From Pseudomonas faucium (GTDB lineage Bacteria; Pseudomonadota; Gammaproteobacteria; Pseudomonadales; Pseudomonadaceae): 30,000 bases of DNA. Under the pieces are notes generated by a model, which saw nothing but the letters and a program-made list of their open reading frames with translations, was not told the origin of the DNA and searched no databases. The stretch lies in assembly GCF_021602585.1 (NCBI RefSeq), contig NZ_BQIP01000011.1:100413-130412 (forward strand), in the 5' to 3' direction. Of this stretch, positions 8,500-30,000 are shown in pieces (position 1 is the stretch's first letter; every line of letters begins with the position of its first letter). The position numbers and the translations under genes are program-made.

Positions 8500-8513
8500 G
8501 TTAGGAGGGAGTT

Positions 8514-12149: not shown

Positions 12150-12165
12150 GATGACGGCTCCTGGG

Positions 12166-12203
12166 TATCTGTTTTTCAGAAGACACCCTATCTGTTTATA
12201 GAT
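12166..12203. promoter_or_regulatory. Candidate LysR-binding region in the divergent promoter
   Basis: TATCTGTTT occurs twice (12166-12174 and 12189-12197). The second copy is part of the palindrome ATCT-GTTTAT-AGAT (12190-12203). The region lies between the lysR start (12149) and the pxpA start (12270). Confidence 0.35.
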
Positions 12204-12269
12204 CTTCCCAAGGGGGTGGGGAGAATCTAACGTGGCCTGCATGCAGCCACAAGCACCAGGAGAACCAGC

Positions 12270-13028: not shown

Positions 13029-13096
13029 GCGCCATTTGCCGCACCGCATTGTTTTTGCCTGCCTTACCGATAAAGATTCCAAGAAAAGGAGCAGAC

Positions 13097-13984: not shown

Positions 13985-14952
13985 TCAAGGTACTCAAACC
14001 TGGCCTGGCCACCTCGGTGCAGGACCTTGGCCGCGAAGGCTTCTATCACCTGGGCATCCCACCCTCGGGCGCGCTCGACCAGTACGCGCTGCGTGCGGCC
14101 AACCACCTGGTCGGCAACCCGGCGGGCGCTGCCGGCATCGAATGCGCGCTGGTGGGGCCGGAGCTCGAGTTCCAGCACGATGCCCTGGTGGCGGTGTGTG
14201 GCGCACAGATGCCGGTGCTGCTCGATGGCCGTGAGCAGCACCCGTACACCGCCTTTGCCGTCCGGGCCGGGCAGGTGCTGCGTTTGGGCTTCCCCACGGC
14301 AGGGGCGCGGGCTTACCTGGCCGTGGCCGGGGGCATCGATGTGCCTGAAGTGCTGGGCAGTCGCTCGACCTACGCCCTGGGCGCCCTTGGCGGCCATCAG
14401 GGGCGCAAGCTGATGGCGGGTGACGTGCTGCCGGTTGGCCAGGCCAGCGGCAAGACCCGCGCCGGGGCCAGCCTGCCCATGGCGCTGCGCCAGGCGCTGG
14501 GTGGCGAGGTGGTGTTGCGGGTGGTGCCGGGGTTGTATTTCCATCGCCTGAGCGAGGCCGCGGCGCAGAGCTTCTTCACCGATGCCTGGACCGTGGGGTC
14601 GGAGGCGGACCGCATCGGCTACCGCTACAAGGGCGGGGGCGCGTTGAGCTTCCAGCCCCGCGAGCAGCCGTTCGGGGCGGGCTCGGACCCTTCGAACATC
14701 GTCGACAGCTGCTACCCGATCGGCTCGATCCAGGTGCCGGCAGGGCTCGAACCGATCATCCTGCACCGCGATGCGGTGTCGGGTGGGGGCTACGCCATGA
14801 TCGGCACGGTGATCAGCGCCGACCTGGACCTGGTGGGGCAGATGCAGCCCAACCAGCAAGCGCGGTTCTTGCCGGTGAGCATGGACGAAGCGCTGGAGGC
14901 GCGGCGGTCGTACAAGAAGAAGCTGGGGTGCCTGGCCAAGCTGTTCGGCTGA
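13981..14952 (+). CDS. pxpC: Allophanate hydrolase subunit 2 / KipA-like (5-oxoprolinase subunit C-like)
   Basis: 323-aa product starting MIKVLKPGLATSVQDLGR.G....G.P.SGA.D, typical of the family. Translationally coupled to the upstream gene. Confidence 0.8.
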   Translation: MIKVLKPGLATSVQDLGREGFYHLGIPPSGALDQYALRAANHLVGNPAGAAGIECALVGPELEFQHDALVAVCGAQMPVLLDGREQHPYTAFAVRAGQVLRLGFPTAGARAYLAVAGGIDVPEVLGSRSTYALGALGGHQGRKLMAGDVLPVGQASGKTRAGASLPMALRQALGGEVVLRVVPGLYFHRLSEAAAQSFFTDAWTVGSEADRIGYRYKGGGALSFQPREQPFGAGSDPSNIVDSCYPIGSIQVPAGLEPIILHRDAVSGGGYAMIGTVISADLDLVGQMQPNQQARFLPVSMDEALEARRSYKKKLGCLAKLFG

Positions 14953-15032: not shown

Positions 15033-15890
15033 TCAGCAGTTTTGCTGCAGGCGCTCGGCACAGGTGCGCAGCACCTCCTCGGCCGGGCGCTGCCACCAGT
15101 TGTCACGCGAGAAGATCTCCACCTCGATAGCGCCCTGATACCCGGCCGCTTCCACCCCCTGGCGCAACCCACGCAGGTCGATGACGCCATCGCCCATCAT
15201 GCCGCGGTCGAGCAGCAGGTCGCGGGTCGGCACCAGCCAGTCGGACAGGTGCAGGCCGAGGATGCGCTGCTGCTGACCGGCGCGTTGCACCTGCTGGGCA
15301 AGCTTGGGGTCCCACCAGCAGTGGTAGGCATCGATGGCCACGCCCAGGCTCTGGAAGCCCCCCGGCTCAAGGGCCTCGCACAGGTCCAGGGCCTGTTCCA
15401 GGGTCGACAGGCACGAGCGGTCGGCCGCATACATCGGGTGCAGCGGCTCCAGGGCCAGGGCCACCCCGTGCCGGCGGGCATCTTCCAGCAGCCAGCCGAT
15501 ACCTTCGCTCACCTGCTGGCGGGCATCGGCGAGGTCGCGTGAACCTTGCGCCAGGCCGCCGACCACCATGATGAAACACTCGGCCTGCAGCTCGGCGGCT
15601 TCTTCGAGGGCTTTGCGGTTGTCGGCCACGGCGGCGGCGAAGGCCTCTCGGCTGGCCGCCGGCAGGTAGGTGGAGCGGCAGTAGGCATTGACCGTCAGCC
15701 CGCAGTCGCGCAGCTGCCGGCGCACCTGTTTCAGGTCCTGGCCTTGCAGGTCGCGGCGCCAGGGCGCGACCTGGCCGAAGCCGGCGCGGGCGATCAGCTC
15801 CAGGGTTTGGCCGAGGGGCAGGCGGTGGCCGAGGGTGGCGGTGTTGATCGAGCAGCGGTCGAGGCGCTGCGCCAGGGATGAAACGTTCAT
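15033..15890 (-). CDS. Sugar phosphate isomerase/epimerase (xylose-isomerase-like TIM barrel)
   Basis: 285-aa product with a TIM-barrel family pattern (..ALEPLHP....S.L.T..QAL.L.. and ..HLSDW..). I preferred the start at 15890 because the upstream ATG at 15926 lies inside a strong hairpin. Confidence 0.7.
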   Translation of the reverse strand: MNVSSLAQRLDRCSINTATLGHRLPLGQTLELIARAGFGQVAPWRRDLQGQDLKQVRRQLRDCGLTVNAYCRSTYLPAASREAFAAAVADNRKALEEAAELQAECFIMVVGGLAQGSRDLADARQQVSEGIGWLLEDARRHGVALALEPLHPMYAADRSCLSTLEQALDLCEALEPGGFQSLGVAIDAYHCWWDPKLAQQVQRAGQQQRILGLHLSDWLVPTRDLLLDRGMMGDGVIDLRGLRQGVEAAGYQGAIEVEIFSRDNWWQRPAEEVLRTCAERLQQNC

Positions 15891-15955
15891 GGGGCAATCA
15901 CCGTGGGCAGGTGGCAGAGGGCGCAACGCCGCAGGCCGCGGCGTTGCGCAAGGGG

Positions 15956-17131
15956 CTAGGCGTCGACGCCGTAGAGCGCCAGCAGGCGCTTCATGCGGGC
16001 AACGGCCAGCACCGGGTCGGCGAGCAGGCCGGCCTGGTCGGCCAGGCGGAAGATTTCGCAGAAGTACGGCAGCGGGCGCATGGCCTGGTGCCCGCCGAGC
16101 ATCACGAAGTGCTCCTGGTGGCCGTTGAGGTAGGCCAGAAACACCACGCCGGTCTTGTAGTACTGGGTCGGGCTGCTGAAGATCAACCGGGCCAGCGGCA
16201 GGGTCGGTTCGAGCAGCCGCTGGTAGCGCGCCAGGTCATCTTCGGCCAGCGCGGCCAGGGCGTGGGCGGCGGCCGGGGCGATGGCGTCGAAGATGCCCAG
16301 CAGCGCGTGGGAGTAGCCGTGCGCGTCGCCGGCGATCAGCTGCGGGTAGTTGAAGTCGTCGCCGGTGTACATCTTCACCGAGGCCGGCAGGCGACGGCGC
16401 ATGAGGATCTCCTTGTCCTTGTCGAGCAGGGAAATCTTGATGCCATCGACCTTGCCCACGTTCTCGTGGATCACCTCCAGGCAGGTGTCCAGCGCCTGCT
16501 CGAAGCGCTCGGCGCCCCAGTAGCCCTGCAGCGCGGGGTCGAACATCTCGCCCAGCCAGTGCAGGATCACCGGCTGGTCGGCCTCGGCCAGCACCTTGCG
16601 GTACACCAGGCGGTAGTCGAACGGGGTCTTCGCCACCCGCGCCAGGGCGCGGCTGGCCATCAGGATCATGCGGCCGCCGAGCTTGGCGATGGCGTCGCGC
16701 TGCTGGGCATAGGCACGCACCACGTCATCGAGGTCGCGGGCCTGGTCCGCTGGCAACTGGTCGGTGCCGCAACCGGAGAAGATCACCGCATGGCGGATGT
16801 CGCGGGTTTCGCTCAGGGTGCGCTCGATCAGCTCCAGCGCGGTCGGCCAGTCCAGGCCCATGCCGCGTTGCGCGGTGTCCATCGCCTCGGCGATGCCCAG
16901 GCCTTGCTGCAGCAGGTAGCGGCGGTAATCCATCGTCCGCCGCCAGTCGATCGCCGCCTTGCCACCGGGGGCGCTGGCGCTGAACGGGTCGGCGACGACA
17001 TGGGCCGCCGAGAGGGCGATGCGGTTGGCGGGCAGGGGGCTGGCCGGCGGCAGCAGCGGCTCGCCAACCAGGGTGTAGCGCTGCAGCGGGTGGCCGGCCT
17101 GGGCGCTGGGCAGGTTGATGCTCAAGGACAT
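15956..17131 (-). CDS. DUF993 family protein (DapA-like fold, function unknown)
   Basis: GGAG lies 8 nt before the ATG at 17131. The 391-aa product contains AIDWRRTMDYRRYLLQQGLGIAEAMDTAQRGMGLDW..ILHWLGEMFDPAL..MYTGDDFNYPQLIAGD..GIFDAIAPAA, which I recognise as the DUF993 pattern. Confidence 0.7.
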   Translation of the reverse strand: MSLSINLPSAQAGHPLQRYTLVGEPLLPPASPLPANRIALSAAHVVADPFSASAPGGKAAIDWRRTMDYRRYLLQQGLGIAEAMDTAQRGMGLDWPTALELIERTLSETRDIRHAVIFSGCGTDQLPADQARDLDDVVRAYAQQRDAIAKLGGRMILMASRALARVAKTPFDYRLVYRKVLAEADQPVILHWLGEMFDPALQGYWGAERFEQALDTCLEVIHENVGKVDGIKISLLDKDKEILMRRRLPASVKMYTGDDFNYPQLIAGDAHGYSHALLGIFDAIAPAAAHALAALAEDDLARYQRLLEPTLPLARLIFSSPTQYYKTGVVFLAYLNGHQEHFVMLGGHQAMRPLPYFCEIFRLADQAGLLADPVLAVARMKRLLALYGVDA

Positions 17132-17145
17132 GCGTGTCACTCCAG

Positions 17146-17916
17146 TCAGAATTTGGGAAGCAGCAGGCCGCCGTCCACCGGCACGGCGTGGCCGACGGTG
17201 TAGGGCAGGGCGCCGGTGGCCATGCTGACCACCACCCGGGCGACATCTTCGGGCTGGCCCCAGCGCTTGATGGCGGTCAGGCCACGTTCGATCTCGGCGT
17301 CGTAACGGGCCTTGGAGGGGGCGGTCATCTCGGTGGCGATCAGCCCGGGCTGCACCTCGTAGACGCCGATGCCGGCCTCGGCCAGGCGCACCGCGAACAG
17401 CCGCGAGGCCATCGACAGAGCGGCCTTGGAAATGCCGTACTCGCCGCGCAGCACCGACACCGCCTGGGCGTTGGATGAGGTGATGGTGATGATGCTGCGC
17501 AGGGCCTGGCCGGCCTCGCGCCGCACCAGGCGGCGGGCGAAGGCCTGGGTCAGGAAGAAGGTGCCGCGGGTGTTGACCTGCTGGCAGCGGTCGTAGCTCT
17601 GCGGCGTCACCTCCAGCAGGTCGCCGCGCGACAGCACCGAGACGCCGGCGTTGTTGACCAGGCAGCTCAGCGCGCCAAGCGCCTGTTCGGCGGCATCGAG
17701 CAAGGCGTCATGGCCGTCGATGGCGGCGATGTCTGCTGCCAGGGCCACGGCGCGGGCGCCGTGGCGGCTGGCCAGTTCGGCCGTCTCCTGCAGGGCGGCA
17801 TCGGCCTGCAGGTCGACCAGGGCCAGGTCGAACCCGGCTTGCGCCAGGCCCAGGGCGATGGCCCGGCCAATGCCGGCGCGGGCGCCGGTGACCAAGGCAA
17901 CGGGGCGGGTGGTCAT
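17146..17916 (-). CDS. Short-chain dehydrogenase/reductase (SDR)
   Basis: Contains TGARAGIGRAIA (TGxxxGxG) and YGISKAAL (YxxxK). The start overlaps the upstream stop (ATGA, 17913-17916). Confidence 0.85.
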   Translation of the reverse strand: MTTRPVALVTGARAGIGRAIALGLAQAGFDLALVDLQADAALQETAELASRHGARAVALAADIAAIDGHDALLDAAEQALGALSCLVNNAGVSVLSRGDLLEVTPQSYDRCQQVNTRGTFFLTQAFARRLVRREAGQALRSIITITSSNAQAVSVLRGEYGISKAALSMASRLFAVRLAEAGIGVYEVQPGLIATEMTAPSKARYDAEIERGLTAIKRWGQPEDVARVVVSMATGALPYTVGHAVPVDGGLLLPKF

Positions 17917-19058
17917 GCGCGTGCTCCCTGGTTGAGCAGCTCACGGGCGATGATCGTGCGCTGGATCTGGTTGGTGCCTTCGTAGATCTGGGTGATCTTG
18001 GCGTCGCGGTACAGGCGCTCGACCTCGAAGCCGCGGATGAAGCCGCTGCCGCCGAACAGCTGCACGGCATTGGCGGTCTGCGCCACGGCGATGTCGGCGG
18101 CGAAGCACTTGGCCATGGAGCAGGCGATGGTGGCGTTGTCGGCGCGGTCCAGGCGCTCGGCGGCGTCGCGCACCAGCAGGCGGGCGGCACGGATGTCCTT
18201 GGCCATGTCGGCGAGCATCCATTGCACGCCCTGGTTGTCGGCGATCGGCTTGCCGAACTGCTTGCGCTGGGGCACGTATTCCAGCGCCGCCTCAAGCCCT
18301 GCCTGGGCGATGCCCACGGCCAGCGAGGCGATGCCGACACGGCCCTTGTCCAGGGCGCTCATCATGATGTGGAAGCCACGGCCCTCGACGCCCAGCAGGG
18401 CATCGGCTGGCAGCTCGACGTTGTCGAAGTTCAGCCCGCCGACCTGCGAGGCGCGCTGGCCCATCTTGTGCTCCTTGGGGCCCTTGGTCACACCCGCCAG
18501 GTGGCAGTCGACGATGAAGATGCTCATGCCGCGCTTGCCGGCGGCAGGGTCGGTGCGCGCCAGGACGAACGCCAGGTCGGCCACCGGGGCGTTGTGAATC
18601 CACAGCTTCGAGCCGTTGAGCAGCCAGCCGGTTTCGGTGCGCACGGCGCTGGTGCGGATGCCCGACACATCGGAGCCGGCCTCGGCTTCGGTGATGCAGT
18701 AGGCCGGGTGCTTCTCGGCGCGCAGCAAGGGCGGCAGATAGCGCTGGCGCTGCTCGGCGGTGCCGTGCACCGCGAGCAGGGTGCCGATCAGCTCCAGCAG
18801 GCCGCACTGGTCGGCGACCGAGGCGTAGCCGCGCGACAGCTCTTCCATCACCAGGGCATAGGCGAGGGTGTCCAGGCCGGCGCCGCCGAAGGCTTCGGGC
18901 ACGGTGATGCCGAACAGGCCGAGCTCGCCCATCTGCCGGTACAGCGGCGCGGGGAAGCTTTCTTCGTGGTCCAGGCGCTCGGCCAGCGGGCGGATGGTCT
19001 GGTCGGCAAAGCGCCGGGCAACGTCCTGGATCATCAGGTGTGTTTCAGAAAGCGGCAT
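17913..19058 (-). CDS. Acyl-CoA dehydrogenase
   Basis: 381-aa product with ACAD hallmarks (CITEAEAGSD, GRGFHIMMSALDKGRVGIA, QLFGGSGF, YEGTNQIQ). Confidence 0.9.
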   Translation of the reverse strand: MPLSETHLMIQDVARRFADQTIRPLAERLDHEESFPAPLYRQMGELGLFGITVPEAFGGAGLDTLAYALVMEELSRGYASVADQCGLLELIGTLLAVHGTAEQRQRYLPPLLRAEKHPAYCITEAEAGSDVSGIRTSAVRTETGWLLNGSKLWIHNAPVADLAFVLARTDPAAGKRGMSIFIVDCHLAGVTKGPKEHKMGQRASQVGGLNFDNVELPADALLGVEGRGFHIMMSALDKGRVGIASLAVGIAQAGLEAALEYVPQRKQFGKPIADNQGVQWMLADMAKDIRAARLLVRDAAERLDRADNATIACSMAKCFAADIAVAQTANAVQLFGGSGFIRGFEVERLYRDAKITQIYEGTNQIQRTIIARELLNQGARA

Positions 19059-19067
19059 TGTTGTTTT
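19059..19067 (-). promoter_or_regulatory. A-rich CA-type (AAnAAnAA) motif abutting the ACAD start codon
   Basis: The minus strand reads GGAAAACAACA-ATG. Confidence 0.4.
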
Positions 19068-19141
19068 CCTTTCCGGGAGGCGACGAGGGGGTTCATCGCG
19101 TGGGTTGTGTTCTGTTCCGGGCTGCTCTAAAGTGTTTTTAA

Positions 19142-19161
19142 GTAACCAACTGGTTATTTAT
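19142..19161 (+). promoter_or_regulatory. Operator-like 20-mer, site 1 (GTAACCAACTGGTTATTTAT)
   Basis: Lies in the divergent ACAD / CoA-transferase intergenic region. It contains the palindrome TAACCA-AC-TGGTTA and shares the 20-mer with sites at 21604 and 25024. Confidence 0.55.
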
Positions 19162-19237
19162 TTAAAGCGCCCTTTGGCAGGCCGTCAAGCACTCAATTGC
19201 ACACCTGGAGTCGCCCGGGGCCGGGCGATCGATGAGG

Positions 19238-19246
19238 AAAACAACA
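19238..19246 (+). promoter_or_regulatory. A-rich CA-type motif abutting the CoA-transferase start codon
   Basis: GAGGAAAACAACA-ATG; the same GGAAAACAACAATG string occurs at the ACAD start. Confidence 0.4.
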
Positions 19247-20758
19247 ATGAAAAGAAGCTGTACATCAGCAGCGGATGTCGCCAGCCGGATAGCCGATGGC
19301 GCGACCGTGGCCATCTGTGGCTCGGGCACCTTGCTGGAGCCGGACGCCTTGCTGGCGGCCATCGAAGCCCGCTTCCTGAGCACCGGCCACCCGCGCGACC
19401 TGACCCTGGTGCACGCCCTGGGCATCGGCGACGGGCGCGGCAGCGGCCTGGAGCGCCTGGCCCACCCGGGCCTGGTGCGCAAGGTGATCGGTGGCCACTG
19501 GAGCTGGTCGGCGAAGATGCAGGCGCTGGCACGCAACGAGCAGATCCAGGCCTACAGCCTGCCGGCCGGGGTGATCATGAGCCTGATGCGCGAGATCGGC
19601 GCCGGCCGCCCGGGGCTGATCACCCACATTGGCCTGGGCACCTTCGCCGACCCGCAGGTGGCCGGCGGCAAGTGCAACGCCAGTGCCAGCCAAGCGCTGG
19701 TCGAGCGGCTGAGCATCGATGGCCAGGACTACCTGCGCTACAAGCCGTTCAAGGTCGATGTGGCGATCGTGCGCGGCAGCCTGGCCGACCCCAGCGGCAA
19801 TATCAGCCTGTGCCACGAGGCGGCCGACCTGGACGCCTACGCCCTGGCGCTGGCGGCGCACAACAGCGGCGGCAAGGTCTACGCCCAGGTCCGCGGCCTG
19901 AGCGACAGCGCCTTCGTGCCGGCACGCCTGGTGCGCATCCCTGGCGTGCTGGTGGATGAAGTGGTGGTGGTCGAGGACCAGCGCCAGTGCGTGGCCGCCG
20001 ACTACGACCCGGCCATCAGCGGCGAGTGCCTGCCCCAGGCGGCGCGCAGCGAGGCGCCGATGGCCGACGATATCCGCCGCATCATCGCCGCGCGTGCGGC
20101 CGATGAATTCGTCCCGGGCATGTCGCTGAACTTTGGCTTCGGCATCCCCGGCGGCATCCCCTCGCTGCTCGCCGAGCGCGGCCTGCAGGACAGCTACTGG
20201 GGCAGCATCGAGCAGGGCATCCACAACGGCCGCATGATGGGCGGTGCGATGTTCGGCGCGGCGCAGTACCCGCAGGCGATCGTCACCTCGCTGGACCAGT
20301 TCGACTTCTACAGCGGCGGCGGTGTCGACCTGGCGTTCCTCGGCATGGGCGAGATGGACGGGCAGGGCAACGTCAACGTGTCCAACCTGGGCGGCACGCT
20401 GGTCGGCCCCGGTGGCTTCGTCGACATCACCCAGGGGGCGCGCAAGGTGGTGTTCTGCGGCGCCTTCGAGGCCAAGGGGCTGGAGGTGGCGAAGGTCGGC
20501 GCTGCCTTGCAGATCGAGCGCCGTGGCGAGGTGCCCAAGCTGGTCGAGCAGGTGCGCCACATCACTTTCAGCGGCCCGCAAGCGGTTCGTGCAGGCCAGG
20601 AGGTGCTGTACGTGACCGAGCGCGCAGTGTTCCGCCTGCTGGCCGAAGGCATCGAGCTCATCGAGGTGGCGCGAGGCGTGGATATCGAGCGCGACGTGCT
20701 GACGCGCATGGCGTTCACGCCGATCGTGCGCGACGTGAAAGTGGCGGGGTTGGCATGA
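19247..20758 (+). CDS. Propionate CoA-transferase / YdiF-type acyl-CoA:carboxylate CoA-transferase
   Basis: GAGGA lies 8 nt before the ATG at 19247. The 503-aa product appears colinear with what I recall of Pct-type enzymes (..GHPRDLTLVH..GHWS..GLITHIGLGTFADP..GGK.N..VAIVRGS.AD.SGNIS..DYDPAISGE..GGVDLAFLGMGEMD.QGNVNVS..GGF.DITQ...KVVFCG.F). Confidence 0.8.
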   Translation: MKRSCTSAADVASRIADGATVAICGSGTLLEPDALLAAIEARFLSTGHPRDLTLVHALGIGDGRGSGLERLAHPGLVRKVIGGHWSWSAKMQALARNEQIQAYSLPAGVIMSLMREIGAGRPGLITHIGLGTFADPQVAGGKCNASASQALVERLSIDGQDYLRYKPFKVDVAIVRGSLADPSGNISLCHEAADLDAYALALAAHNSGGKVYAQVRGLSDSAFVPARLVRIPGVLVDEVVVVEDQRQCVAADYDPAISGECLPQAARSEAPMADDIRRIIAARAADEFVPGMSLNFGFGIPGGIPSLLAERGLQDSYWGSIEQGIHNGRMMGGAMFGAAQYPQAIVTSLDQFDFYSGGGVDLAFLGMGEMDGQGNVNVSNLGGTLVGPGGFVDITQGARKVVFCGAFEAKGLEVAKVGAALQIERRGEVPKLVEQVRHITFSGPQAVRAGQEVLYVTERAVFRLLAEGIELIEVARGVDIERDVLTRMAFTPIVRDVKVAGLA

Positions 20759-20763
20759 GCCGG

Positions 20764-20803
20764 GCAGCCCCTCGCGGCGTGCGGTGTGGCCGGGAGGGGC
20801 TGC
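20764..20803. terminator. Possible hairpin between the convergent CoA-transferase and tetR genes
   Basis: gcagcccctc (20764-20773) pairs with gaggggctgc (20794-20803), with a 20-nt loop. The large loop makes this a weak call. Confidence 0.25.
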
Positions 20804-20817
20804 GTGCAGCGTGGGCG

Positions 20818-21474
20818 TCAGGCGGGGCGCAGCATGCCGAGGATGGTCTGCACGTTGAAGTCGATGCGCGCCTGCAGGGCTTCGGGCGACATCAGGTCGA
20901 AGCCGTAGATGATCTCGCCGGTGAAGCGGTTGTTCAGGTAGTAGTAGTTGATCGCGGCGATCGTGATGTTCAGCTGCACCGGGTCGACACCTTCGCGGAA
21001 CACGCCCTGGGCCACGCCACGGGCGAGGATCTGGGCGACCATCGACACCATCGGCGCGTGCATCTGCTGCATCTTTTCCTGGGAGCGCTTGAGGTGCACG
21101 GCCTTGTGCAGGTTCTCGCTGTTGACCAGGGTCAGGAAGTGCGGGTTCTTCAGGTAGTACTTCCAGGTGAAGGTCACCAGTTGGGTGATCGCCTCGACCG
21201 GCTCCAGCGCTTCGAGATTGAGCTTGCGTTCGGCCTGGCGGATGTCCTGGTAGGCCGACTCCAGGACCGCTTCGAACAGCCCCTCCTTGTTGCCGAAGTA
21301 CTCGTAGATCATCCGTTTGTTGGACTTGGCGCGCAGCGCGATGCTGTCGATGCGTGCGCCGGCCAAGCCCAGTTTGGCGAATTCGACCTTGGCGGCGTTG
21401 AGGATTCTCAGGCGCGTCGCTTCGGAATCCCGGGTGGGGCGGGCGCTGACCGCTTCGGTGGCTTTGCTGGGCAT
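20818..21474 (-). CDS. TetR/AcrR-family transcriptional regulator
   Basis: GGAGAG precedes the ATG at 21474. The 218-aa product has an N-terminal HTH region, TRLRILNAAKVEFAKLGLAGARIDSIALRAKSNKRMIYEYFGNKEGLF. Confidence 0.85.
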   Translation of the reverse strand: MPSKATEAVSARPTRDSEATRLRILNAAKVEFAKLGLAGARIDSIALRAKSNKRMIYEYFGNKEGLFEAVLESAYQDIRQAERKLNLEALEPVEAITQLVTFTWKYYLKNPHFLTLVNSENLHKAVHLKRSQEKMQQMHAPMVSMVAQILARGVAQGVFREGVDPVQLNITIAAINYYYLNNRFTGEIIYGFDLMSPEALQARIDFNVQTILGMLRPA

Positions 21475-21603
21475 GTGGAACGCTCTCCAGAGCTTGAGTG
21501 CTGTACTTCCTGACGCAGAAATCAATGGCCTGCGGTGTAGGGGCGATGAGCTTAGCCGCGGGGGCATAAGGCTGACAAACAAAGCTTAGCCCGCTGCTTG
21601 TAT

Positions 21604-21623
21604 GTAAACAACCGGTTAGTTAT
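21604..21623 (+). promoter_or_regulatory. Operator-like 20-mer, site 2 (GTAAACAACCGGTTAGTTAT)
   Basis: Lies in the tetR / aldehyde dehydrogenase divergent region. It is an imperfect palindrome centred on CCGG. It fills the 17-nt spacer between TTGTAT (21598-21603) and TATACG (21621-21626). Confidence 0.55.
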
Positions 21624-21698
21624 ACGTAGGCAACCGGCAGCCGCTCGATATGCGCTGTGCGGGTGGTTTGCCAGAACAACAACAACGCTGTACTGAGG

Positions 21699-23216
21699 AT
21701 GTTTCCCGTGAATAACAACGACAACACGCCACGCCTGGCGCCGCCGCTGCAGCCGCGGCGCTTCGAAATGTTCATCGACGGCCGCTGGACGCAGGGTTCG
21801 GCGACCACCCAGGTCACGCGCTACAGCCCGTCCCACGAGGTGCCGGTGAGTGTCTACCCCGCTGCCGGCGTCGACGACGTGCAGCAGGCGGTGGCGGCGG
21901 CCCGCCGGGCCTTCGACCACGGCACCTGGGCCCGCTCCAGTGGTGCGTTGCGGGCAGGTGTGCTGCTGCGCACCGCCGCCCTGATCCGCCAGCACAGCGA
22001 AGCGCTGGCGCTGCAGGAAACTTTCGAGACCGGCAAGCCGATCAGCCAGGCGCGCGGTGAGGTGCTGGGCGCCGCGGGCATCTGGGAATATGCCGCAGGG
22101 CAAGCCCAGGCCCTGCACGGCGACAGCTTCAACAACCTCGGTGACAGCCTGCTCGGGCTGGTCACGCGCGAGCCGGTGGGTGTGGTCGGGCTGATCACGC
22201 CGTGGAACTTCCCGTTCTTCATCCTCGCCGAGCGCCTGCCGTTCATCCTGGCGTCCGGCTGCACCGTGGTGGCCAAGCCCAGCGAACTGACCTCAGGTAC
22301 CACCCTGATGCTGGCCGGGCTGATGCAGGAAGCCGGCCTGCCCGACGGCGTGCTCAATGTGCTCACCGGCCCGGGTGCGGTGCTCGGCCAGGCGATCAGT
22401 GCGCATGCCGATATCGACATGGTGTCGTTCACCGGCTCCACCGAAGTCGGCCGCCTGACCATGGCCGCGGCCACCGGCAACATGAAGAAGGTCGGCCTGG
22501 AACTGGGCGGCAAGAACCCGCAGGTGGTGTTTGCCGACGCCGACCTGGACGCGGCCGCCGACGCCATCGTCTTCGGCATCTGCTTCAATGCCGGCCAATG
22601 CTGCGTCAGCGGCAGCCGCCTGATCGTCGAGCGCTCGGTGGAGCAGGCGCTGACCGAGAAGATCTGCGTCTTGCTCGACAAGGTGCGCATCGGTGACCCG
22701 TTGCACGCGGGCACCCAGGTCGGCTCGATCACCGAGGCTCGTCATCTGGAGCGGGTGCTGGGCTACATCGAGCAGGGGCGGCGCGAAGGCGCGCGCTTGC
22801 TGCGCGGCGGGCAGCGCATCGAATCGCCGACGGGCATGTACCTGCAGCCCACCGTGTTCGCCGACGTCACCCCGCAGATGGTCATCGCCCGCGAAGAAAT
22901 CTTCGGCCCGGTGCTGACCATCACTGCCTTCGACAGCTTCGAGCAAGCCATGGCGCTGGCCAACGACACGCCCTTCGGGCTGGCCGCCAGCCTCTGGAGC
23001 CGCAACCTGGAAACTGCGCTGCAGGCCACGCGGCAGATCAAGGCTGGCCGGGTCTGGGTCAACACCACCATTGCCGGTGGGCCGGAGCTGCCCTCTGGTG
23101 GCTTCAAGCAGTCGGGCATTGGCCGCGAGGCCGGGCGCTACGGGGTGGAGGAGTACACTGAGCTCAAGTCCGTGCATGTGCAGCTGGGTGCCCGCACGCC
23201 GTGGGTCAGCGCCTGA
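21699..23216 (+). CDS. NAD(P)-dependent aldehyde dehydrogenase
   Basis: Contains ELGGKNP and FNAGQCCVSGSR (catalytic Cys) and an EEIFGPV motif. The start is ambiguous: ATG at 21699 abuts the SD, while GTG at 21708 lies 8 nt after GAGGA. Confidence 0.85.
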   Translation: MFPVNNNDNTPRLAPPLQPRRFEMFIDGRWTQGSATTQVTRYSPSHEVPVSVYPAAGVDDVQQAVAAARRAFDHGTWARSSGALRAGVLLRTAALIRQHSEALALQETFETGKPISQARGEVLGAAGIWEYAAGQAQALHGDSFNNLGDSLLGLVTREPVGVVGLITPWNFPFFILAERLPFILASGCTVVAKPSELTSGTTLMLAGLMQEAGLPDGVLNVLTGPGAVLGQAISAHADIDMVSFTGSTEVGRLTMAAATGNMKKVGLELGGKNPQVVFADADLDAAADAIVFGICFNAGQCCVSGSRLIVERSVEQALTEKICVLLDKVRIGDPLHAGTQVGSITEARHLERVLGYIEQGRREGARLLRGGQRIESPTGMYLQPTVFADVTPQMVIAREEIFGPVLTITAFDSFEQAMALANDTPFGLAASLWSRNLETALQATRQIKAGRVWVNTTIAGGPELPSGGFKQSGIGREAGRYGVEEYTELKSVHVQLGARTPWVSA

Positions 23217-23254
23217 ATCCAGGCAGCAGAACAACAAGATCGGAGAAAACAAGC

Positions 23255-24907
23255 ATGTACGATTACGTCGTTATCGGTGGGGGTTCCGCCGGTTGTGTGC
23301 TGGCGGCGCGCCTGAGCGAGCAGGCGGATGTGCGGGTGTTGCTGCTCGAGGCCGGGCCTGCCGATACCAACCCCTACATCCATATGCCGGTGGGTTTTTT
23401 CAAGATGACCGGCGGCCCGCTGACCTGGGGCTTCGATACCGTGGCCCAAGGCACCATGAACAACCGTTCGGTGCTGTACCCGCAAGGGCGGGTGCTGGGC
23501 GGTGGCGGTTCGATCAATGCCATGGTCTATACCCGCGGCAACGCCAAGGACTATGACGACTGGGAGCAGGAGGAGGGCTGCCGTGGCTGGTCCTTCCGCG
23601 AGGTGCTGCCGTATTTTCGCAAGGCCGAGGACAACGAGCGCCTGAGCAACGAATACCACGGCACCGAAGGCCCGCTGGGGGTGTCCGACCTGATCAGCGT
23701 GAACGAGGTGACCAAGGCCTTCATCCGCTCGGCCCAGGAAGCCGGCATCCCTTACAACGCCGACTTCAACGGCGCCCGCCAGGAAGGCTGCGGCGCCTAC
23801 CAGGTCACCCAGCGCGGCGGGCGCCGCTGCAGTGCCGCCCAGGGCTACCTGAGCAAGGCCCGCCAGCGGCCCAACTTGACCATCCAGACCGACTGCCTGG
23901 TAACCCGCATCCGCATCGACAACGGCCAGGCCACGGGTGTCGAGTACGTCCAGGGCAGCGGCTCGCGCGAGGTGCGCTTCGTGGCCGCCGAGCGTGAGGT
24001 GGTGCTGGCGGCCGGCGCCATCGGCTCGCCGAAGACCCTCATGCTCTCCGGCGTCGGCCCGGCCGAGGAGCTGCAGCGCCTGGGCATCGAGGTCAAGCAG
24101 GACCTGCCCGGGGTGGGGCAGAACCTGCAGGATCACTTCGACATCGACATCGTCTACGAGCTCAAGGGGTCGCAGAGCCTGGACAAGTACGCCAAGCCGC
24201 ACATGATGTTGCTGGCGGGGCTGGAGTACAAGCTGTTCAACAAGGGCCCGGTCACCTCCAACATCGCCGAGGCCGGTGCCTTCTGGTACGGCGATTCGCG
24301 CGCCAGCGTGCCAGACCTGCAGTTCCATTTCCTGCCCGGTGCCGGGGTGGAGGCGGGCATCCCGCCGGTGCCCTCCGGCGCCGGCTGTACCCTCAACTCG
24401 TACTTCCTGCGCCCGCGCAGCCGCGGCAGCGTGCGCCTGCGCAGCGCCGACCCGCTGCAGCCACCGCTGATCGACCCCAACTACATCAGCAACCCGTATG
24501 ACCTGCACGTGTCGGTCGAAGGCATCAAGCTCAGCCGCGAGATCATGGCCCAGCAGTCCTTGAGCCGCTACATCAAGGCCGAGCATTTCCCCGGCGACAG
24601 CGTGCGTACCCAGGCGGACTACGAAGACTACGCACGGCGCTGCGGGCGCACCGGGTATCACCCGGTGGGTACCTGCAAGATGGGCATCGACGCCATGGCC
24701 GTGGTCGATCCGCAGTTGCGGGTGCGGGGCGTGCGGCGCTTGCGGGTGGTTGACTCTTCGGTGATGCCGAGGTTGGTCAGCTCCAATACCAATGCGCCGT
24801 CGATCATGATTGCCGAGAAGGGCGCCGACCTGATCCTGGGGCGCAGCCTGGCGCCTTCGCAGGTGCTGGTGCGCAGTGAGCGTGGGGAGCTGCACAAGGC
24901 AGTCTGA
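23255..24907 (+). CDS. GMC-family FAD oxidoreductase (choline/alcohol dehydrogenase-like)
   Basis: Starts MYDYVVIGGGSAGCVLAARLSE (GxGxxG). Also contains GGGSINAMVYTRG and the C-terminal HPVGTCKMG..VVDSSVMP. Confidence 0.9.
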   Translation: MYDYVVIGGGSAGCVLAARLSEQADVRVLLLEAGPADTNPYIHMPVGFFKMTGGPLTWGFDTVAQGTMNNRSVLYPQGRVLGGGGSINAMVYTRGNAKDYDDWEQEEGCRGWSFREVLPYFRKAEDNERLSNEYHGTEGPLGVSDLISVNEVTKAFIRSAQEAGIPYNADFNGARQEGCGAYQVTQRGGRRCSAAQGYLSKARQRPNLTIQTDCLVTRIRIDNGQATGVEYVQGSGSREVRFVAAEREVVLAAGAIGSPKTLMLSGVGPAEELQRLGIEVKQDLPGVGQNLQDHFDIDIVYELKGSQSLDKYAKPHMMLLAGLEYKLFNKGPVTSNIAEAGAFWYGDSRASVPDLQFHFLPGAGVEAGIPPVPSGAGCTLNSYFLRPRSRGSVRLRSADPLQPPLIDPNYISNPYDLHVSVEGIKLSREIMAQQSLSRYIKAEHFPGDSVRTQADYEDYARRCGRTGYHPVGTCKMGIDAMAVVDPQLRVRGVRRLRVVDSSVMPRLVSSNTNAPSIMIAEKGADLILGRSLAPSQVLVRSERGELHKAV

Positions 24908-24917
24908 ACCCTGCCAG

Positions 24918-24978
24918 GGCCCTATCGCCGGCAAGCCTCACCGTCCTCTGTGGGAGCCGGCTTGCCGGCGATAGGGCC
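24918..24978. repeat. REP element forming a perfect 20-bp stem hairpin (probable terminator of the GMC gene)
   Basis: ggccctatcgccggcaagcc (24918-24937) is the exact reverse complement of ggcttgccggcgatagggcc (24959-24978). The loop contains ctgtgggagcc. It starts 11 nt after the stop codon. Confidence 0.75.
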
Positions 24979-25023
24979 AGACCTGACAAACATTAAAGAT
25001 TGCATCCTCGCTGCGTTAGATTT

Positions 25024-25043
25024 ATAAATAACTAGTTGGTTAC
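25024..25043 (-). promoter_or_regulatory. Operator-like 20-mer, site 3 (minus strand GTAACCAACTAGTTATTTAT)
   Basis: Matches site 1 at 19 of 20 positions. It ends 50 nt upstream of the SBP start codon. Confidence 0.55.
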
Positions 25044-25092
25044 ATAAAAACAACAGGCAGTACTCACCCGGTGCCCTGCACCCGGAGGCCAA

Positions 25093-26196
25093 ATGAATAA
25101 CAACAATGATTCCACCCAACTGCTGGACATCACCCGGCGCAAGCTGCTGCTGGTCGGTGCCGCAGGCCTTGCCGGCGTCGGTGCCGTGGCCGCGCTGATG
25201 CCCACCGCGCTCTGGGCGCAGACCACACTGACGTTTTCCAATTCCTTCCGCTCCCTGACCAACCCCTACCACGCCATCTTCAACCGCGGCGGCCAGGCCT
25301 ACGCGGCCAGCCTGGGCCTGCCGTACTCGCCGCTGGTCACCGAAGGCAACAGCCAGAAGGGCATCGCCGATATCCGCGCGCTGATCGCCAAGACCGAAGG
25401 CAACCTGATCCTCAACATCGAGCCCAACGACTCCGCCGACGCCCGCGCCATCATCGAGCAGTGCGTCAAGGCCGGGGTCTACGTCACCACCGTGTGGAAC
25501 AAGCCCGACGACATGCACCCCTGGGACTACAGCCCCTACTGGGTGGCGCACATCTCCGAAGACGGCCAGGCGGTGGGCGAGGCGGTGGCCACCGAGCTGT
25601 TCGAAGCCATGGGCGGCAGCGGCGGCATCGTCGCCCTGGGCGGTATCCTCAGCAACGTGGCGGCCATCGGCCGGCGCAGTGGCCTGGAGGCCGCGCTGAA
25701 GAAGTACCCCGGCATCACCCTGCTGGACTTCCAGCCAGCCGACTGGAGCGCGAACAAGGCGTTCCCCATCGTGCAGTCGTGGCTGACCCGCTTCAACAGC
25801 GACATCAAGGGCATCTGGTGCGCCAACGACGACATGGGCATGGGCGCGCTCGAAGCGCTGCGTGGCGAAGGCCTGGCGGGGATGATCCCGGTGGTGGGCA
25901 TCGATGGCATCGAGCAGGCCGTCGAAGCCATTCGCACCGGCGAATACATCGCCACCACCAGCCTCGACCCTTACTGGCTCGGCAGCATGGGCCTGGCCCT
26001 GGGCCACGCGGCCAAGACCGGGCGCATCGACCCGGCCCAGGAGCCGCACGAGCACCGTGAGTTCTACGTGCGCCCGCAACTGGTCACCAAGGCCAATGTC
26101 GAGGCGTTCTACGCGAGCAACTTCAAGGCCACCCCGGTGGTGGACGTGAATGATTTCTGGGGGCGCGTGGCCGGGCCTATCCGCTACACCTCCTGA
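25093..26196 (+). CDS. Sugar-type (RbsB-like, PBP1) ABC substrate-binding protein with Tat-type signal peptide
   Basis: GGAGG lies 4 nt before the ATG. The N-terminus MNNNNDSTQLLDITRRKLLLVGAAGLAGVGAVAALMPTALWA has a twin-arginine motif. The remainder resembles periplasmic sugar-binding proteins. Confidence 0.8.
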   Translation: MNNNNDSTQLLDITRRKLLLVGAAGLAGVGAVAALMPTALWAQTTLTFSNSFRSLTNPYHAIFNRGGQAYAASLGLPYSPLVTEGNSQKGIADIRALIAKTEGNLILNIEPNDSADARAIIEQCVKAGVYVTTVWNKPDDMHPWDYSPYWVAHISEDGQAVGEAVATELFEAMGGSGGIVALGGILSNVAAIGRRSGLEAALKKYPGITLLDFQPADWSANKAFPIVQSWLTRFNSDIKGIWCANDDMGMGALEALRGEGLAGMIPVVGIDGIEQAVEAIRTGEYIATTSLDPYWLGSMGLALGHAAKTGRIDPAQEPHEHREFYVRPQLVTKANVEAFYASNFKATPVVDVNDFWGRVAGPIRYTS

Positions 26197-26278
26197 CCCC
26201 TAGCGCCTTTTTCATTCGGCCAGCCTGCCAGGCTGCACGCCGAGGGTTTTCTACTGCCTGTTTTCCGGAGTTATCGTC

Positions 26279-27223
26279 ATGGCCCGCCTGCGACGGTTTT
26301 CGTCACTGCTTGTCCTGCTGCTGATCGGCCTGCTCATCGGTTCGATCAACAGCAACTTCTTCGACCCGATGAACCTGGTGCGCATTGCCACCGCCTGTTC
26401 GATCCCACTGCTGATGGCACTGGGCGGGATGTTCGTGATCCAGATGGGCAGCATCGACCTGTCCGTGGAAGGCGTGGTGGCGGTCGCCGCCGTGTGCTTC
26501 GCCCTGCTGGTGGGCAACAACCTCAATGCCCACGCCCTTGGCCTGTGGGCCTTGCCGGTGGCCATTGCGGTTGGCGCCGGCACCGGCCTGCTCAACGGCC
26601 TGCTGCAGGTGAAACTGCGCATCCCGTCGTTCATGGCCACCCTGGGCCTGGGCTTCGTCGGCATCGGCCTGGCCACGGCCTTGCTGCAGGGCAACACCGT
26701 GCGGGTGCTGGACATGGACGTGCGCGCCATCGCCTTGCACCGCCTGCTCGGCCTGCCGTTGTCGGTGTGGATCGTGGTGCTGGCGCTGGGCGTCGCGCAC
26801 TTCATCTCGCGCCATACCGTGCTCGGGCGCCACGCCCTGGCGATCGGCGGTGGCGAGGACCTGGCGCGGCTCAATGGCGTCAACGTCAACCGCATACGCA
26901 TCGGCATCTTCGCCCTGGCCGGGGGCTTCTATGGCCTGGCGGCAATCCTTGCGGTGGCGCAGTTCGGCCAGGGGCACGCGCTGATCGCCCAGGGCCAGCT
27001 GTTCACCGCGATCACCGCCATCGTGGTCGGCGGCGCCTCGCTGGCCGGCGGCAACGGCAGCCCGCTGGTCACCTTGCTGGGCGTGCTGATCGTGGTGGTG
27101 GTGAGCAACGGCATGGTCCTGATGGGGGTTGCGCCGTATGTCCAGCAAGGTGTGCAGGGGGTGTTGATCATCGCTGCCGTCGCCATTGCCCTCGACCGTG
27201 CCAAGGCACGGGTCGTCAAGTGA
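26279..27223 (+). CDS. ABC transporter permease (ribose/xylose-type)
   Basis: 314-aa polytopic protein with a RbsC-like pattern (GSIDLSVEG.., ..TLG.. and ..GG.SL.GG.GS). Confidence 0.85.
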   Translation: MARLRRFSSLLVLLLIGLLIGSINSNFFDPMNLVRIATACSIPLLMALGGMFVIQMGSIDLSVEGVVAVAAVCFALLVGNNLNAHALGLWALPVAIAVGAGTGLLNGLLQVKLRIPSFMATLGLGFVGIGLATALLQGNTVRVLDMDVRAIALHRLLGLPLSVWIVVLALGVAHFISRHTVLGRHALAIGGGEDLARLNGVNVNRIRIGIFALAGGFYGLAAILAVAQFGQGHALIAQGQLFTAITAIVVGGASLAGGNGSPLVTLLGVLIVVVVSNGMVLMGVAPYVQQGVQGVLIIAAVAIALDRAKARVVK

Positions 27224-27234
27224 GGAAAGCCGCC

Positions 27235-28737
27235 ATGCTCACCCTGAACAATGTCACCAAGCGCTTCAACGGCGTCACCGTGCTCAAGGGCATCGACCTT
27301 GAGGTACGCAAGCATGAAGTGGTCGGCCTGATCGGCGAGAACGGTGCCGGCAAATCGACCCTGATGAAAATCCTCACCGGCGTGCACCAGCCCGATGAAG
27401 GGCACCTGGAGCTCGACGGCCAGCCCATCGTCCTCGACGGCCCTCGCGGTGCCACCGCGCAGGGCATCGCCATGGTCTACCAGGAGCAGTCGATCCTGCC
27501 CAACCTGTCGGTGGCCGAGAACCTGTTCATGGGCCGCGAAGACGAATTCTCGCGCTTTGGCTGGCTGAACTGGAAAAAACTGCACCGCGCGGCGCGCCAG
27601 CAGCTGGCCAAGGTCAACCTCGATATCGACCCGGGCATGCTGTGCAGCGAGCTGAGCTTCGGCCAGCGGCAGATGATCGAGCTGGCCAAGGCGCTGGCGC
27701 TGGAAGAACGCTGCCAGGGCCACCTGGTGATCTTGCTCGACGAGCCCACCTCGGTGCTGGAGCAGCGCGAGATCGACACGCTGTTCCGCCTGGTGCGCCA
27801 GCTCAAGTCGCGCGCCTCGTTCATCTTCGTCTCGCACCGGCTGGACGAACTGCTCGAACTCAGCGACCGGGTGTACGTGATGAAGGACGGCGAGGTGGTG
27901 GCGCAGATGCCCGCTGGCGAAGCCTCCAAGGAGCGCCTGCACAGCCTGATGGTGGGCCGTTCGCTGCAGGCCGAGTTCTACCGCGAGTCGCTGCAGAAGC
28001 CGTGCTTGCCCGAGGTGGTGCTGTCGGCACGCGGGCTGGCCTTGCACGGCCATTTCGCCAGCCTCGACTTCGACCTGCACCGCGGCGAGATCCTCGGCAT
28101 CGCCGGGGTAATCGGCTCGGGCCGCGAGGAGCTGTGCCGGGTGCTGGCCGGGTTGCTGCCCCGAAGCAGCGGCGAGCTCAAGGTGCACGGCAAGCGCCTG
28201 GCCGGCGGCGGCCCGGCGGCGGCGATCCGCGCCGGGATCGGCTACATCCCGCGCGAGCGCAAGGTCGAGGGCATCGTCTCGATGCTCAGCGTGGCGCAGA
28301 ACATGACCCTGGCGCGGATCGGCCAGGTCACCCGCGCCGGCCTGCTCGACGAGAAGCGCGAGCGCAGCCTCGCCGAGAGCTGGATCAAGCGGCTGAGCAT
28401 CAAGACCCCAGGCCCGGATGCCTTGCTGCTCAACCTCAGCGGCGGCAACCAGCAGAAGGTGGTGCTGGCCAAATGGCGCAACGCCGGCTCCAGCATCCTC
28501 ATCCTCGACCACCCCACCCGTGGGCTGGACGTGGGTGCCAAGGAAGACGTCTACCAGTTGATCCGCGAGATCACCGAACAGGGCGTGTCGGTGATCCTCA
28601 CCGCCGACACCCTGGAAGAAATGATCGGCCTGAGCCACCGCATCCTGGTGATGCGCGATGGCGACGTGGCGCAATCCTTCGCCTGCCTGCCGGGGGCCAA
28701 GCCCCAGCAGGTCGACCTGATCCAGTACATGGTCTGA
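27235..28737 (+). CDS. Sugar ABC transporter ATP-binding protein (two fused ABC domains)
   Basis: GAGGA lies 8 nt before the ATG. Walker A is GENGAGKST. Signature-like motifs are LSFGQRQ and LSGGNQQK. There are two Walker B-like stretches (ILLDEPT and LILDHPT). Confidence 0.9.
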   Translation: MLTLNNVTKRFNGVTVLKGIDLEVRKHEVVGLIGENGAGKSTLMKILTGVHQPDEGHLELDGQPIVLDGPRGATAQGIAMVYQEQSILPNLSVAENLFMGREDEFSRFGWLNWKKLHRAARQQLAKVNLDIDPGMLCSELSFGQRQMIELAKALALEERCQGHLVILLDEPTSVLEQREIDTLFRLVRQLKSRASFIFVSHRLDELLELSDRVYVMKDGEVVAQMPAGEASKERLHSLMVGRSLQAEFYRESLQKPCLPEVVLSARGLALHGHFASLDFDLHRGEILGIAGVIGSGREELCRVLAGLLPRSSGELKVHGKRLAGGGPAAAIRAGIGYIPRERKVEGIVSMLSVAQNMTLARIGQVTRAGLLDEKRERSLAESWIKRLSIKTPGPDALLLNLSGGNQQKVVLAKWRNAGSSILILDHPTRGLDVGAKEDVYQLIREITEQGVSVILTADTLEEMIGLSHRILVMRDGDVAQSFACLPGAKPQQVDLIQYMV

Positions 28738-28747
28738 GAGAACAACG

Positions 28748-29695
28748 ATGCCTATCCTGCTCAATGGTTTTCGCACCCAGGCGCCGCTGCTGGCGCTGAT
28801 CGTGCTGGTTGCCCTGATCGCCGGCTACGACCCCGGCTTCATCCACCCCGGTGCCGTGTTCGGGCTGCTTGCCGACACCGCCACGCTGTTCATCATGGCC
28901 ACCGGCATCACCTTCGTGCTGCTGATCGGCGGCATCGACCTGTCGTCCCAGGCGGTGGCTTCCATGGCCAGCGTGCTGGTCGCGCTGCTGCTGCCAGGCT
29001 TCGGCCCGTGGGCCTTCGCCATCGGCCTGCTGGCGGGCATTGCCGCAGGGGCGCTGAGCGGGGTGCTGCACACCTGGCTGCGCATCCCGTCGTTCATCGT
29101 CACCCTGGCCATCGGCGGGGTGGTCACCAGCCTGACCATGCTGGTGTCGAGCAATCGCACCATCAACATCGATGGCGCGCAGCGCGATGCCTGGTTCGGC
29201 TGGGTCACCGGGCAGACGGCGGGTATCCCCAACGAAGTGCTGGTCGCAAGTGTGGTACTGGGGCTGTGCATCTTCCTGCAGCGCAAGACGCCGTTCGGCC
29301 GCTTCGGCAATGCCGTGGGCGCCGGTGAGCCTGCGGCCTGGGCCTCGGGAATCAACGTCAACCGCATCAAGGTGCTGACCTTCGCCCTGTCGGCGGGGCT
29401 GGCGGCGTTGTCCGGCGTGCTCATGGCCGGGCGCCTGTCCAGCGGCTCGCCGACCCTGGCCAACGAGTTCCTGCTGCCGGCGATTGCCGCCGTGCTGGTC
29501 GGCGGCACCGCACTGACCGGCGGCGTCGGCAGCGTGTGGCGCACCCTGGTCGGCGCGTTGCTGGTGTCGGTGGTGCGCATCGGCATGACCTTCGTCGGCA
29601 TCAGCGTGTTCGCCCAGCAGATCGTCTTCGGCGTGATCCTGATCATCGCCGTGGCCTTCACCCTGGACCGTTCCAAGCTTCCCATCGTCAAGTAA
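28748..29695 (+). CDS. Second ABC transporter permease
   Basis: 315-aa polytopic protein, paralogous in pattern to 26279-27223 (GGIDLSSQA.. and ..GG.AL.GG.GS). Confidence 0.85.
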
Positions 29696-29721: not shown

Positions 29722-30000
29722 ATGAAAGTCCTTGTGTCAATCAAGCGAGTGGTCGACTACAACGTCAAGGTTCGCGTCAAGGCGGACCACTCCGGCGTCG
29801 ACCTGGCAAACGTCAAGATGGCCATGAACCCCTTCTGCGAAATCGCCGTGGAAGAAGCCGTGCGCCTGAAAGAGAAAGGCGTTGCGACCGAGATCGTGGT
29901 CGTCTCCGTCGGCCCGACCACCGCCCAGGAACAGCTGCGTACCGCGCTGGCACTGGGTGCCGACCGCGCCATCCTGGTCGAGGCCGCCGATGAACTGAAC
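29722..30000 (+). CDS. etfB: Electron transfer flavoprotein beta subunit, 5' part (runs off the window)
   Basis: Absent from the ORF track because there is no stop in the window. My translation from ATG at 29722 reads [93 protein letters not shown], a canonical EtfB N-terminus. Confidence 0.9.

Follow-up and report, generated by a model that had tools for sequence, protein, structure and literature searches.

Gene content and organization of the cluster

We analysed a 30,000-nucleotide stretch of the 5.9-Mb genome of Pseudomonas faucium (contig C11, positions 100413–130412; hereafter the window), which carries a catabolic gene cluster combining a sugar-type ATP-binding cassette (ABC) importer with a GMC flavoprotein, an aldehyde dehydrogenase (ALDH), a coenzyme A (CoA)-transferase, an acyl-CoA dehydrogenase (ACAD), a short-chain dehydrogenase/reductase (SDR), a DUF993 protein and a xylose-isomerase-like TIM-barrel protein. 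A first-pass annotation had listed these genes without assigning them to any pathway. All proved to be intact open reading frames with the expected Pfam families and a third-position GC content (GC3) of 0.87–0.94 (Table 1); a tetR gene had been missing from the list. The ACAD, SDR, DUF993 and TIM-barrel genes form, in this order, a minus-strand operon with gaps of -4, 14 and 65 nt, from which the CoA-transferase gene diverges. The plus strand further carries ALDH–GMC and an operon running from the sugar-binding protein (SBP) through permease, ATPase and second permease to etfB.

Table 1. Features of the cluster, with positions counted from the first nucleotide of the window
Feature	Position	Strand	Remarks
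Xylose-isomerase-like TIM barrel	15033-15890	-	PF01261; orthologue of S. meliloti SMc04130
DUF993 protein	15956-17131	-	PF06187
SDR, family PRK12745	17146-17916	-	NCBIfam, above cut-off
ACAD	17913-19058	-	Pfam, NCBIfam
Palindromic TetR operator (predicted), ACAD/CoA-transferase intergenic region	19141-19158	.	30.4 bits; kept in orthologous loci
Family I (YdiF/Pct-like) CoA-transferase	19232-20758	+	PF01144; likely start 19247
TetR-family repressor	20818-21474	-	PF00440 + PF17938; 53-62% to orthologues
Two overlapping operator-like sites, tetR/ALDH intergenic region	21603-21624	.	18.8 + 15.7 bits; kept in two related genomes
ALDH, predicted L-sorbosone dehydrogenase orthologue	21699-23216	+	7W5L, E 9e-189
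GMC flavoprotein	23255-24907	+	Pfam, NCBIfam; 57% to GMC adjoining Gluconobacter L-sorbosone dehydrogenase
Palindromic TetR operator (predicted), 5' of ABC operon	25027-25044	.	29.6 bits
CUT2 SBP, twin-arginine leader	25093-26196	+	PF13407; 2RJO, E 1.5e-133
ABC permease 1	26279-27223	+	
Double ABC ATPase	27235-28737	+	
ABC permease 2	28748-29695	+	
Second etfB, 5' part in window	29722-30000	+	etfA, then OprB porin past window end

The etfB gene starts 26 nt past permease 2, and its product had been proposed as the electron acceptor of the ACAD. A chance housekeeping neighbour was rejected as an explanation, since the genome holds another etfBA pair, next to the ETF-quinone oxidoreductase (ETF-QO) gene on contig C4, to which this second copy is 97% and 91% identical; the electron transfer flavoprotein (ETF) is therefore dedicated to this cluster. 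As had also been noted, neither an enoyl-CoA hydratase nor a thiolase is encoded in the cluster, which thus departs from a classical beta-oxidation operon. The hydratase gap, however, is a trait of this variant, as 21 of 28 related CoA-transferase loci have a hydratase gene.

A shared TetR regulon and a recurrent gene set

All three promoter regions of the cluster contain a palindrome with the consensus AGTAACCATATGGTTACT. Scored genome-wide with a matrix built solely from sites of other genomes, the operators of the window ranked first (that between the ACAD and CoA-transferase genes), second (that upstream of the ABC operon) and fourth, and a looser pattern matched 108 times in related loci and about 20 times in shuffled sequences. 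Since these operators are common to all three promoter regions, the cluster is predicted to be one co-regulated unit. This agrees with the earlier idea of a single pathway, and independently regulated sub-operons were not seen. Other operator-like sites lie near pcaH-like and pet genes on contigs C25 and C3 and were not counted as regulon members.

The same gene set, including etfBA, is found on S. meliloti pSymA and in Paracoccus versutus, Rhizobium TH2 and Paraburkholderia caribensis, and the cluster recurs in Sinorhizobium, Paracoccus, Rhizobium, Burkholderiaceae and Gluconobacter. In Gluconobacter and Acetobacter the enzyme genes and etfBA lie in one run; the Gluconobacter operon holds ACAD, ETF and ETF-QO, and no crotonase was found there with the query used. 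Within the host genus, DUF993 occurs in 6 of 400 other genomes; two of these have the same cluster (75–92% identity), in which etfB likewise follows the last permease gene. Because the set recurs in such distant genomes and its operators rank so high, the cluster is more than a chance assembly.

The oxidases are related to sorbosone and sorbose dehydrogenases

The best solved match of the ALDH was the L-sorbosone dehydrogenase (SNDH) of G. oxydans, the next family following at about 1e-116. The protein keeps the catalytic and channel residues N163, F164, E171, R172, E262, C295, C296, V297, R445 and E471, with M167 replaced by F; the channel residues are those defined for SNDH (PMC10602560). 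By both best match and residues the ALDH falls in the SNDH subfamily, and we regard it as a predicted SNDH orthologue. In Gluconobacter, the ALDH that heads the cluster matched 7W5L with an E value of 7e-283, and the adjoining GMC shares a clade with the window GMC, the comparator being the product of the neighbouring gene and not the sequence of the assayed enzyme. The window GMC is a probable orthologue of FAD-dependent L-sorbose dehydrogenase, oxidising a primary alcohol. Because the Gluconobacter ALDH matches 7W5L and its neighbouring GMC groups with that of the window, the industrial sndh–sdh pair itself probably belongs to this cluster.

The ACAD has all three domains and the catalytic Glu360 in a YEGT motif, and it is the most conserved enzyme of the cluster (70–81% across genera). 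It scored under the NCBIfam cut-offs of the models for acryloyl-CoA reductase (372 bits, cut-off 640), cyclohexanecarbonyl-CoA dehydrogenase (304, cut-off 650) and desulfinase (278, cut-off 600), and its ESM Atlas matches bore generic ACAD names only. The SDR is predicted to be the dehydrogenase of an allylic ring hydroxyl. The TIM-barrel protein, which matched 3JU2 and 3QC0 (E 4e-91) and has the metal-site motifs, is a predicted epimerase or beta-eliminating lyase acting on a keto intermediate.

DUF993 had been described as lacking an assigned function, and our literature search likewise found no paper on it. The protein matched 4DNH (E 8e-136). An alignment-based model (pLDDT 92.9) has the TIM-barrel fold of N-acetylneuraminate lyase (NAL), aligning with dihydrodipicolinate synthase (DHDPS)/NAL proteins over 286 residues with a Z score of 29.9, an rmsd of 2.4 and 11–17% identity. 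Lys232, the predicted Schiff-base lysine, is invariant in 50 sequences and lies on the sixth barrel strand, as placed by strand count, not by residue-level superposition. DHDPS proper was ruled out, since AMDTxQRG and His191 stand in place of the pyruvate-binding GxTGE motif and the catalytic beta-5 Tyr. On this model, DUF993 probably acts like a class I aldolase or hydratase-aldolase that cleaves C–C bonds.

An apparent sister operon contains 1,5-anhydro-D-fructose reductase

Tracing another SDR of family PRK12745 through rhizobial genomes brought us to an operon whose first gene encodes the known 1,5-anhydro-D-fructose reductase (AFR). In S. meliloti it comprises afr and genes for a CoA-transferase, a crotonase (enoyl-CoA hydratase, ECH), an ALDH, an ABC system, GMC2, an SDR, a GMC and glycerate kinase, with a divergent DUF993 gene. 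The first 105 residues of the S. meliloti AFR agree with the 4KOA alignment, and the Peteryoungia gene matched 4KOA and 2GLX (E 2e-108). AFR adjoins the CoA module in 10 of the 11 AFR loci examined, namely those of S. meliloti, Peteryoungia, Roseibium, Microvirga, four Rhizobium and two host-genus genomes; the link fails on a Bradyrhizobium plasmid. The AFR operons found here have neither an ACAD nor a TIM-barrel gene, and S. meliloti as a species holds both types of locus, in different strains.

As in the AFR operon, homologues of the CoA-transferase, ALDH, PRK12745 SDR, GMC and DUF993 protein stand together in the window; identities to the S. meliloti proteins are 57% (DUF993), 54% (GMC), 50% (ALDH), 45% (SDR) and 42% (CoA-transferase). 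By these relationships the cluster appears to be a sister of the AFR operon, which points to similar chemistry on sibling substrates. The view that the cluster has no characterised relatives and that its substrate cannot be assigned was not supported, given the apparent orthology of ALDH–GMC to the Gluconobacter sorbosone and sorbose dehydrogenases and the five AFR-locus paralogues. The same two lines of evidence narrow the probable substrate to the anhydro-sugar class.

For the S. meliloti AFR operon itself (L105:15998-30897), the gene content suggests a CoA-dependent fate of 1,5-anhydromannitol instead of the proposed P450 route. At other loci (L107:13992-16667, L111:2457-5132) AFR and GMC2 form a pair that either stands by itself or is oriented divergently to the CoA module, and the two enzymes may epimerise 1,5-anhydroglucitol to 1,5-anhydromannitol via anhydrofructose. 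GMC2 is also paired with a shikimate-dehydrogenase-like (AroE-like) gene at two loci (L100, L101). A Gfo gene that follows the TIM-barrel gene in Burkholderiaceae was rejected as an AFR orthologue (93 bits, compared with 366 for a true AFR).

Enzyme substitutions among related loci

The neighbourhood analysis of DUF993 that the first-pass annotation had recommended covered 80 loci, truncated at 10 kb, with genes counted by tblastn; the loci are related to one another, and the counts are descriptive only. Among the 28 CoA-transferase loci, 12 have both ACAD and crotonase, seven have only ACAD and nine only crotonase, and every locus has at least one of the two; one of the ACAD-only loci contains a sub-threshold crotonase, and one crotonase-only genome encodes an ACAD elsewhere. 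An etfB gene was seen only alongside ACAD. The SDR is present in 32 loci and a Gfo/Idh/MocA protein in 41, both together in just 1 of 72, while in two genomes the position of the SDR is occupied by genes for an AroE-like enzyme and a ShiA-like transporter. An enolase-family gene occurs in 29 loci, none of them with a CoA-transferase, and the tree places the CoA-transferases in use in two distant clades. ACAD and enoyl-CoA hydratase appear interchangeable across relatives, and so do the SDR, Gfo/Idh/MocA and AroE-like enzymes. We infer three routes to a single alpha,beta-unsaturated, shikimate-like ring acid, whose allylic hydroxyl would be oxidised by three dehydrogenase families.

Several variant loci were noted in passing. 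One acid-level variant (L120:9679-17345) has a galactonate-type major facilitator superfamily (MFS) transporter, crotonase, CoA-transferase, TetR, SDR, DUF993 and TIM-barrel genes, and no GMC, ALDH or ACAD gene within that stretch. Five DUF993 loci of the Gfo and enolase type (L031, L033, L038, L062, L064) adjoin a sugar ABC system and have the same TetR operator; one locus of this type carries an NAD-dependent epimerase/dehydrogenase, tentatively uronate-dehydrogenase-like. A fragmented Gfo–TIM barrel–MFS–DUF993 locus like that of Pantoea (L113:11340-14929) lies in a genome with 9% contamination and is probably on a contaminant contig.

Proposed pathway

Sugars of the 1,5-anhydrohexitol type are six-membered cyclic ethers that bear a CH2OH arm but lack an anomeric hydroxyl. 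From the genes, regulon, orthologies and substitution patterns, we consider it reasonably probable that the cluster encodes an aerobic, CoA-dependent pathway for a sugar of this type. The ABC system would import the sugar, and the GMC and ALDH would oxidise C6 to give a 2,6-anhydro-hexonate, from which the CoA-transferase would form the thioester. The ACAD would then introduce the double bond and pass electrons to ETF, a step that relatives could replace by crotonase-catalysed dehydration; the resulting cyclic enol ether would resemble shikimate in shape, with an oxygen in the ring. CoA would be released before the SDR oxidises the allylic hydroxyl. The TIM-barrel protein would epimerise C5 or eliminate the ring oxygen, and DUF993 would hydrate the intermediate and cleave it via a Schiff base to pyruvate and either glycerate or a second pyruvate. 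Starting from 1,5-anhydromannitol, the D-erythro skeleton would make the epimerase unnecessary, in agreement with AFR operons that have no TIM-barrel gene, and from 1,5-anhydroglucitol the L-threo skeleton would require it.

In its fuller form, to which we give somewhat less than even credence, the proposal is that 1,5-anhydroglucitol, or a sugar closely related to it, would be degraded aerobically by an undescribed pathway in which the ACAD would desaturate a sugar-acid CoA ester and so unlock the ether ring, DUF993 would be the C–C-cleaving enzyme common to the pathway family, and the sorbose and sorbosone dehydrogenases of the vitamin C route would carry out the first two steps. L-Sorbopyranose is 1,5-anhydroglucitol with one additional hydroxyl group. 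1,5-Anhydroglucitol as the actual sugar is possible, if unlikely; a 4-deoxy-1,5-anhydrohexitol derived from ascopyrones has a smaller chance still, even though the redox count of a cluster with ACAD only fits a 4-deoxy ring best. Anhydrofructose gives rise to 4-deoxy rings of this kind in the form of ascopyrones (PMC12441222, PMC8056936). According to its title, PMID 25721692 concerns a Sinorhizobium sorbose dehydrogenase that reacts with 1,5-anhydro-D-glucitol. Our literature search found no aerobic CoA-dependent anhydro-sugar pathway, nothing functional for SMc04130-04137 and no match for those pSymA locus tags of S. meliloti that were tried. The cluster is a conserved candidate for an apparently undescribed pathway.

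Several observations weigh against this proposal. With 1,5-anhydroglucitol, ACAD plus SDR would perform one oxidation more than is needed for pyruvate and glycerate, and glycerate kinase is encoded outside the cluster, with one gene on contig C4. Neither afr nor a crotonase gene is present at the window locus, and a genome search with an AFR query gave no match with E < 1e-15. The AFR-operon paralogues form clades separate from the window proteins, and the ALDH channel residues are E/R/V/R in the window and Q/K/N/T in the AFR operon; because of both differences, the two systems are predicted to act on different substrates. The CoA-dependent route of that operon is itself a prediction, the published proposal for the AFR route being P450 hydroxylation to mannose (PMC12441222). 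Finally, the enzyme named in the title of PMID 25721692 may be the AFR-operon paralogue, as S. meliloti SMc04390 shares its name.

L-Sorbose could instead be the natural substrate, converted to L-sorbosone and 2-keto-L-gulonate and degraded by the remaining enzymes; the orthology to G. oxydans SNDH with its conserved channel residues and the DkgB-like reductase and Zn-dehydrogenase genes of the rhizobial copies speak for it, but we judge it improbable. By general chemistry 2-keto-L-gulonate has no alpha-hydrogen, so that its CoA ester would be no substrate for ACAD or crotonase and L-sorbose a poor natural substrate, yet the ACAD is co-regulated, is the most conserved enzyme and shares an operon with sndh–sdh in Gluconobacter. 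The AFR-linked paralogues would also be left unexplained. On the proposed pathway, L-sorbose would be a look-alike substrate.

Equally improbable, in our estimate, is a ring that is a carbocycle or pyrone, either a hydroxymethyl-cyclitol or an ascopyrone/kojic-type compound degraded via comenate, and treated like cyclohexanecarboxyl-CoA or shikimate. The ACAD score of 304 bits against the cyclohexane-1-carbonyl-CoA dehydrogenase model, the AroE-like and ShiA-like genes of variant loci and the carboxylate-type transporters of acid-level variants would suit such a ring, but that score is far under the cut-off, the ABC importer is of the sugar type, and the nearest characterised links (AFR, SNDH) concern pyranose-like sugars; the literature search also turned up nothing on bacterial genes for the catabolism of ascopyrones or comenate. 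Slightly weaker again is CoA-free opening and cleavage by SDR, TIM barrel and DUF993, with CoA-transferase and ACAD merely oxidising a short-chain acid product: acryloyl-CoA reductase is the best ACAD model and about 40 DUF993 loci operate without CoA genes, but in Gluconobacter the CoA-transferase and ACAD genes separate the oxidase genes from the SDR–DUF993 block, ACAD and ECH look interchangeable, and the enolase-family protein is found only where CoA-transferase is absent, as for an alternative alpha-carbon chemistry on the ring acid.

Neighbouring and other loci

Past the window, C11:134488-148833 (L096) carries genes for a ThuA-like protein, a thiamine diphosphate (ThDP) enzyme, GMC2, an MFS transporter, LacI, a HisD-like dehydrogenase and a second GMC. 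The ThDP, HisD-like and GMC2 genes occur together again in Priestia, Paracoccus and Rhizobium, and in the latter two genera the ABC system at these loci is 43–68% identical to that of the AFR operon. The locus may serve to degrade a related sugar independently of CoA.

Within the window, a LysR gene divergent from a pxpABC-like operon (LamB/YcsF, carboxyltransferase) lies at 11232-14952 and was not seen beside orthologous clusters. Positions 1-4180 and 6059-10238 form a 100% identical tandem repeat with a unit of 6058 bp, reaching 1875 bp upstream of the window. The unit is a type VI secretion cassette with vgrG, DcrB, PAAR-LHH nuclease and SUKH immunity genes, its vgrG being broken over two frames near 5137-5480; the repeat is either a recent duplication or an assembly artefact.

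Comparison with known systems

The anaerobic 1,5-anhydroglucitol/mannitol pathways of gut bacteria (phosphotransferase system, glycyl-radical YbiW/PflD; PMC12441222) address the same substrate class and must likewise break an ether ring, but they are radical, phosphorylated and oxygen-sensitive and have no genes in common with the window cluster. According to a 2025 review, an oxidative 1,5-anhydroglucitol pathway is undescribed, and an aerobic enzyme would be needed to lower 1,5-anhydroglucitol in two inherited neutropenias (PMC12441222). If our proposal is true, it names candidate genes for such an oxidative route, gives a natural role to the industrial sorbose and sorbosone dehydrogenases and a function to DUF993 (4DNH) and two more structure-only proteins (3QC0, 2RJO), and places acyl-CoA dehydrogenase chemistry on a sugar.

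The Sinorhizobium AFR pathway (PDB 2GLX, 4KOA) shares its CoA-transferase, ALDH, SDR, GMC and DUF993 paralogues with the window cluster at 42–57%. Of the AFR, crotonase, LacI and CUT1 transporter found there, the window cluster has none; it carries ACAD, ETF, the xylose-isomerase-like protein, TetR and a CUT2 transporter instead. The Gluconobacter sorbose/sorbosone dehydrogenase pair, with its apparently orthologous ALDH–GMC, heads the same cluster in Gluconobacter sp. Gdi; sndh–sdh is known solely as an industrial two-step oxidation, and the literature searched held no description of its downstream genes or natural substrate.

In CoA-dependent ring oxidation, as of cyclohexanecarboxyl-CoA and 2-furoyl-CoA, thioester activation and alpha,beta-unsaturation precede ring opening, and non-phosphorylative 2-keto-3-deoxy-acid routes proceed by C4 oxidation and then cleavage to pyruvate and a C3 acid. 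The window cluster would merge both logics in one sugar pathway, with DUF993 taking the role of a crotonase hydrolase or an FAH-family hydrolase.

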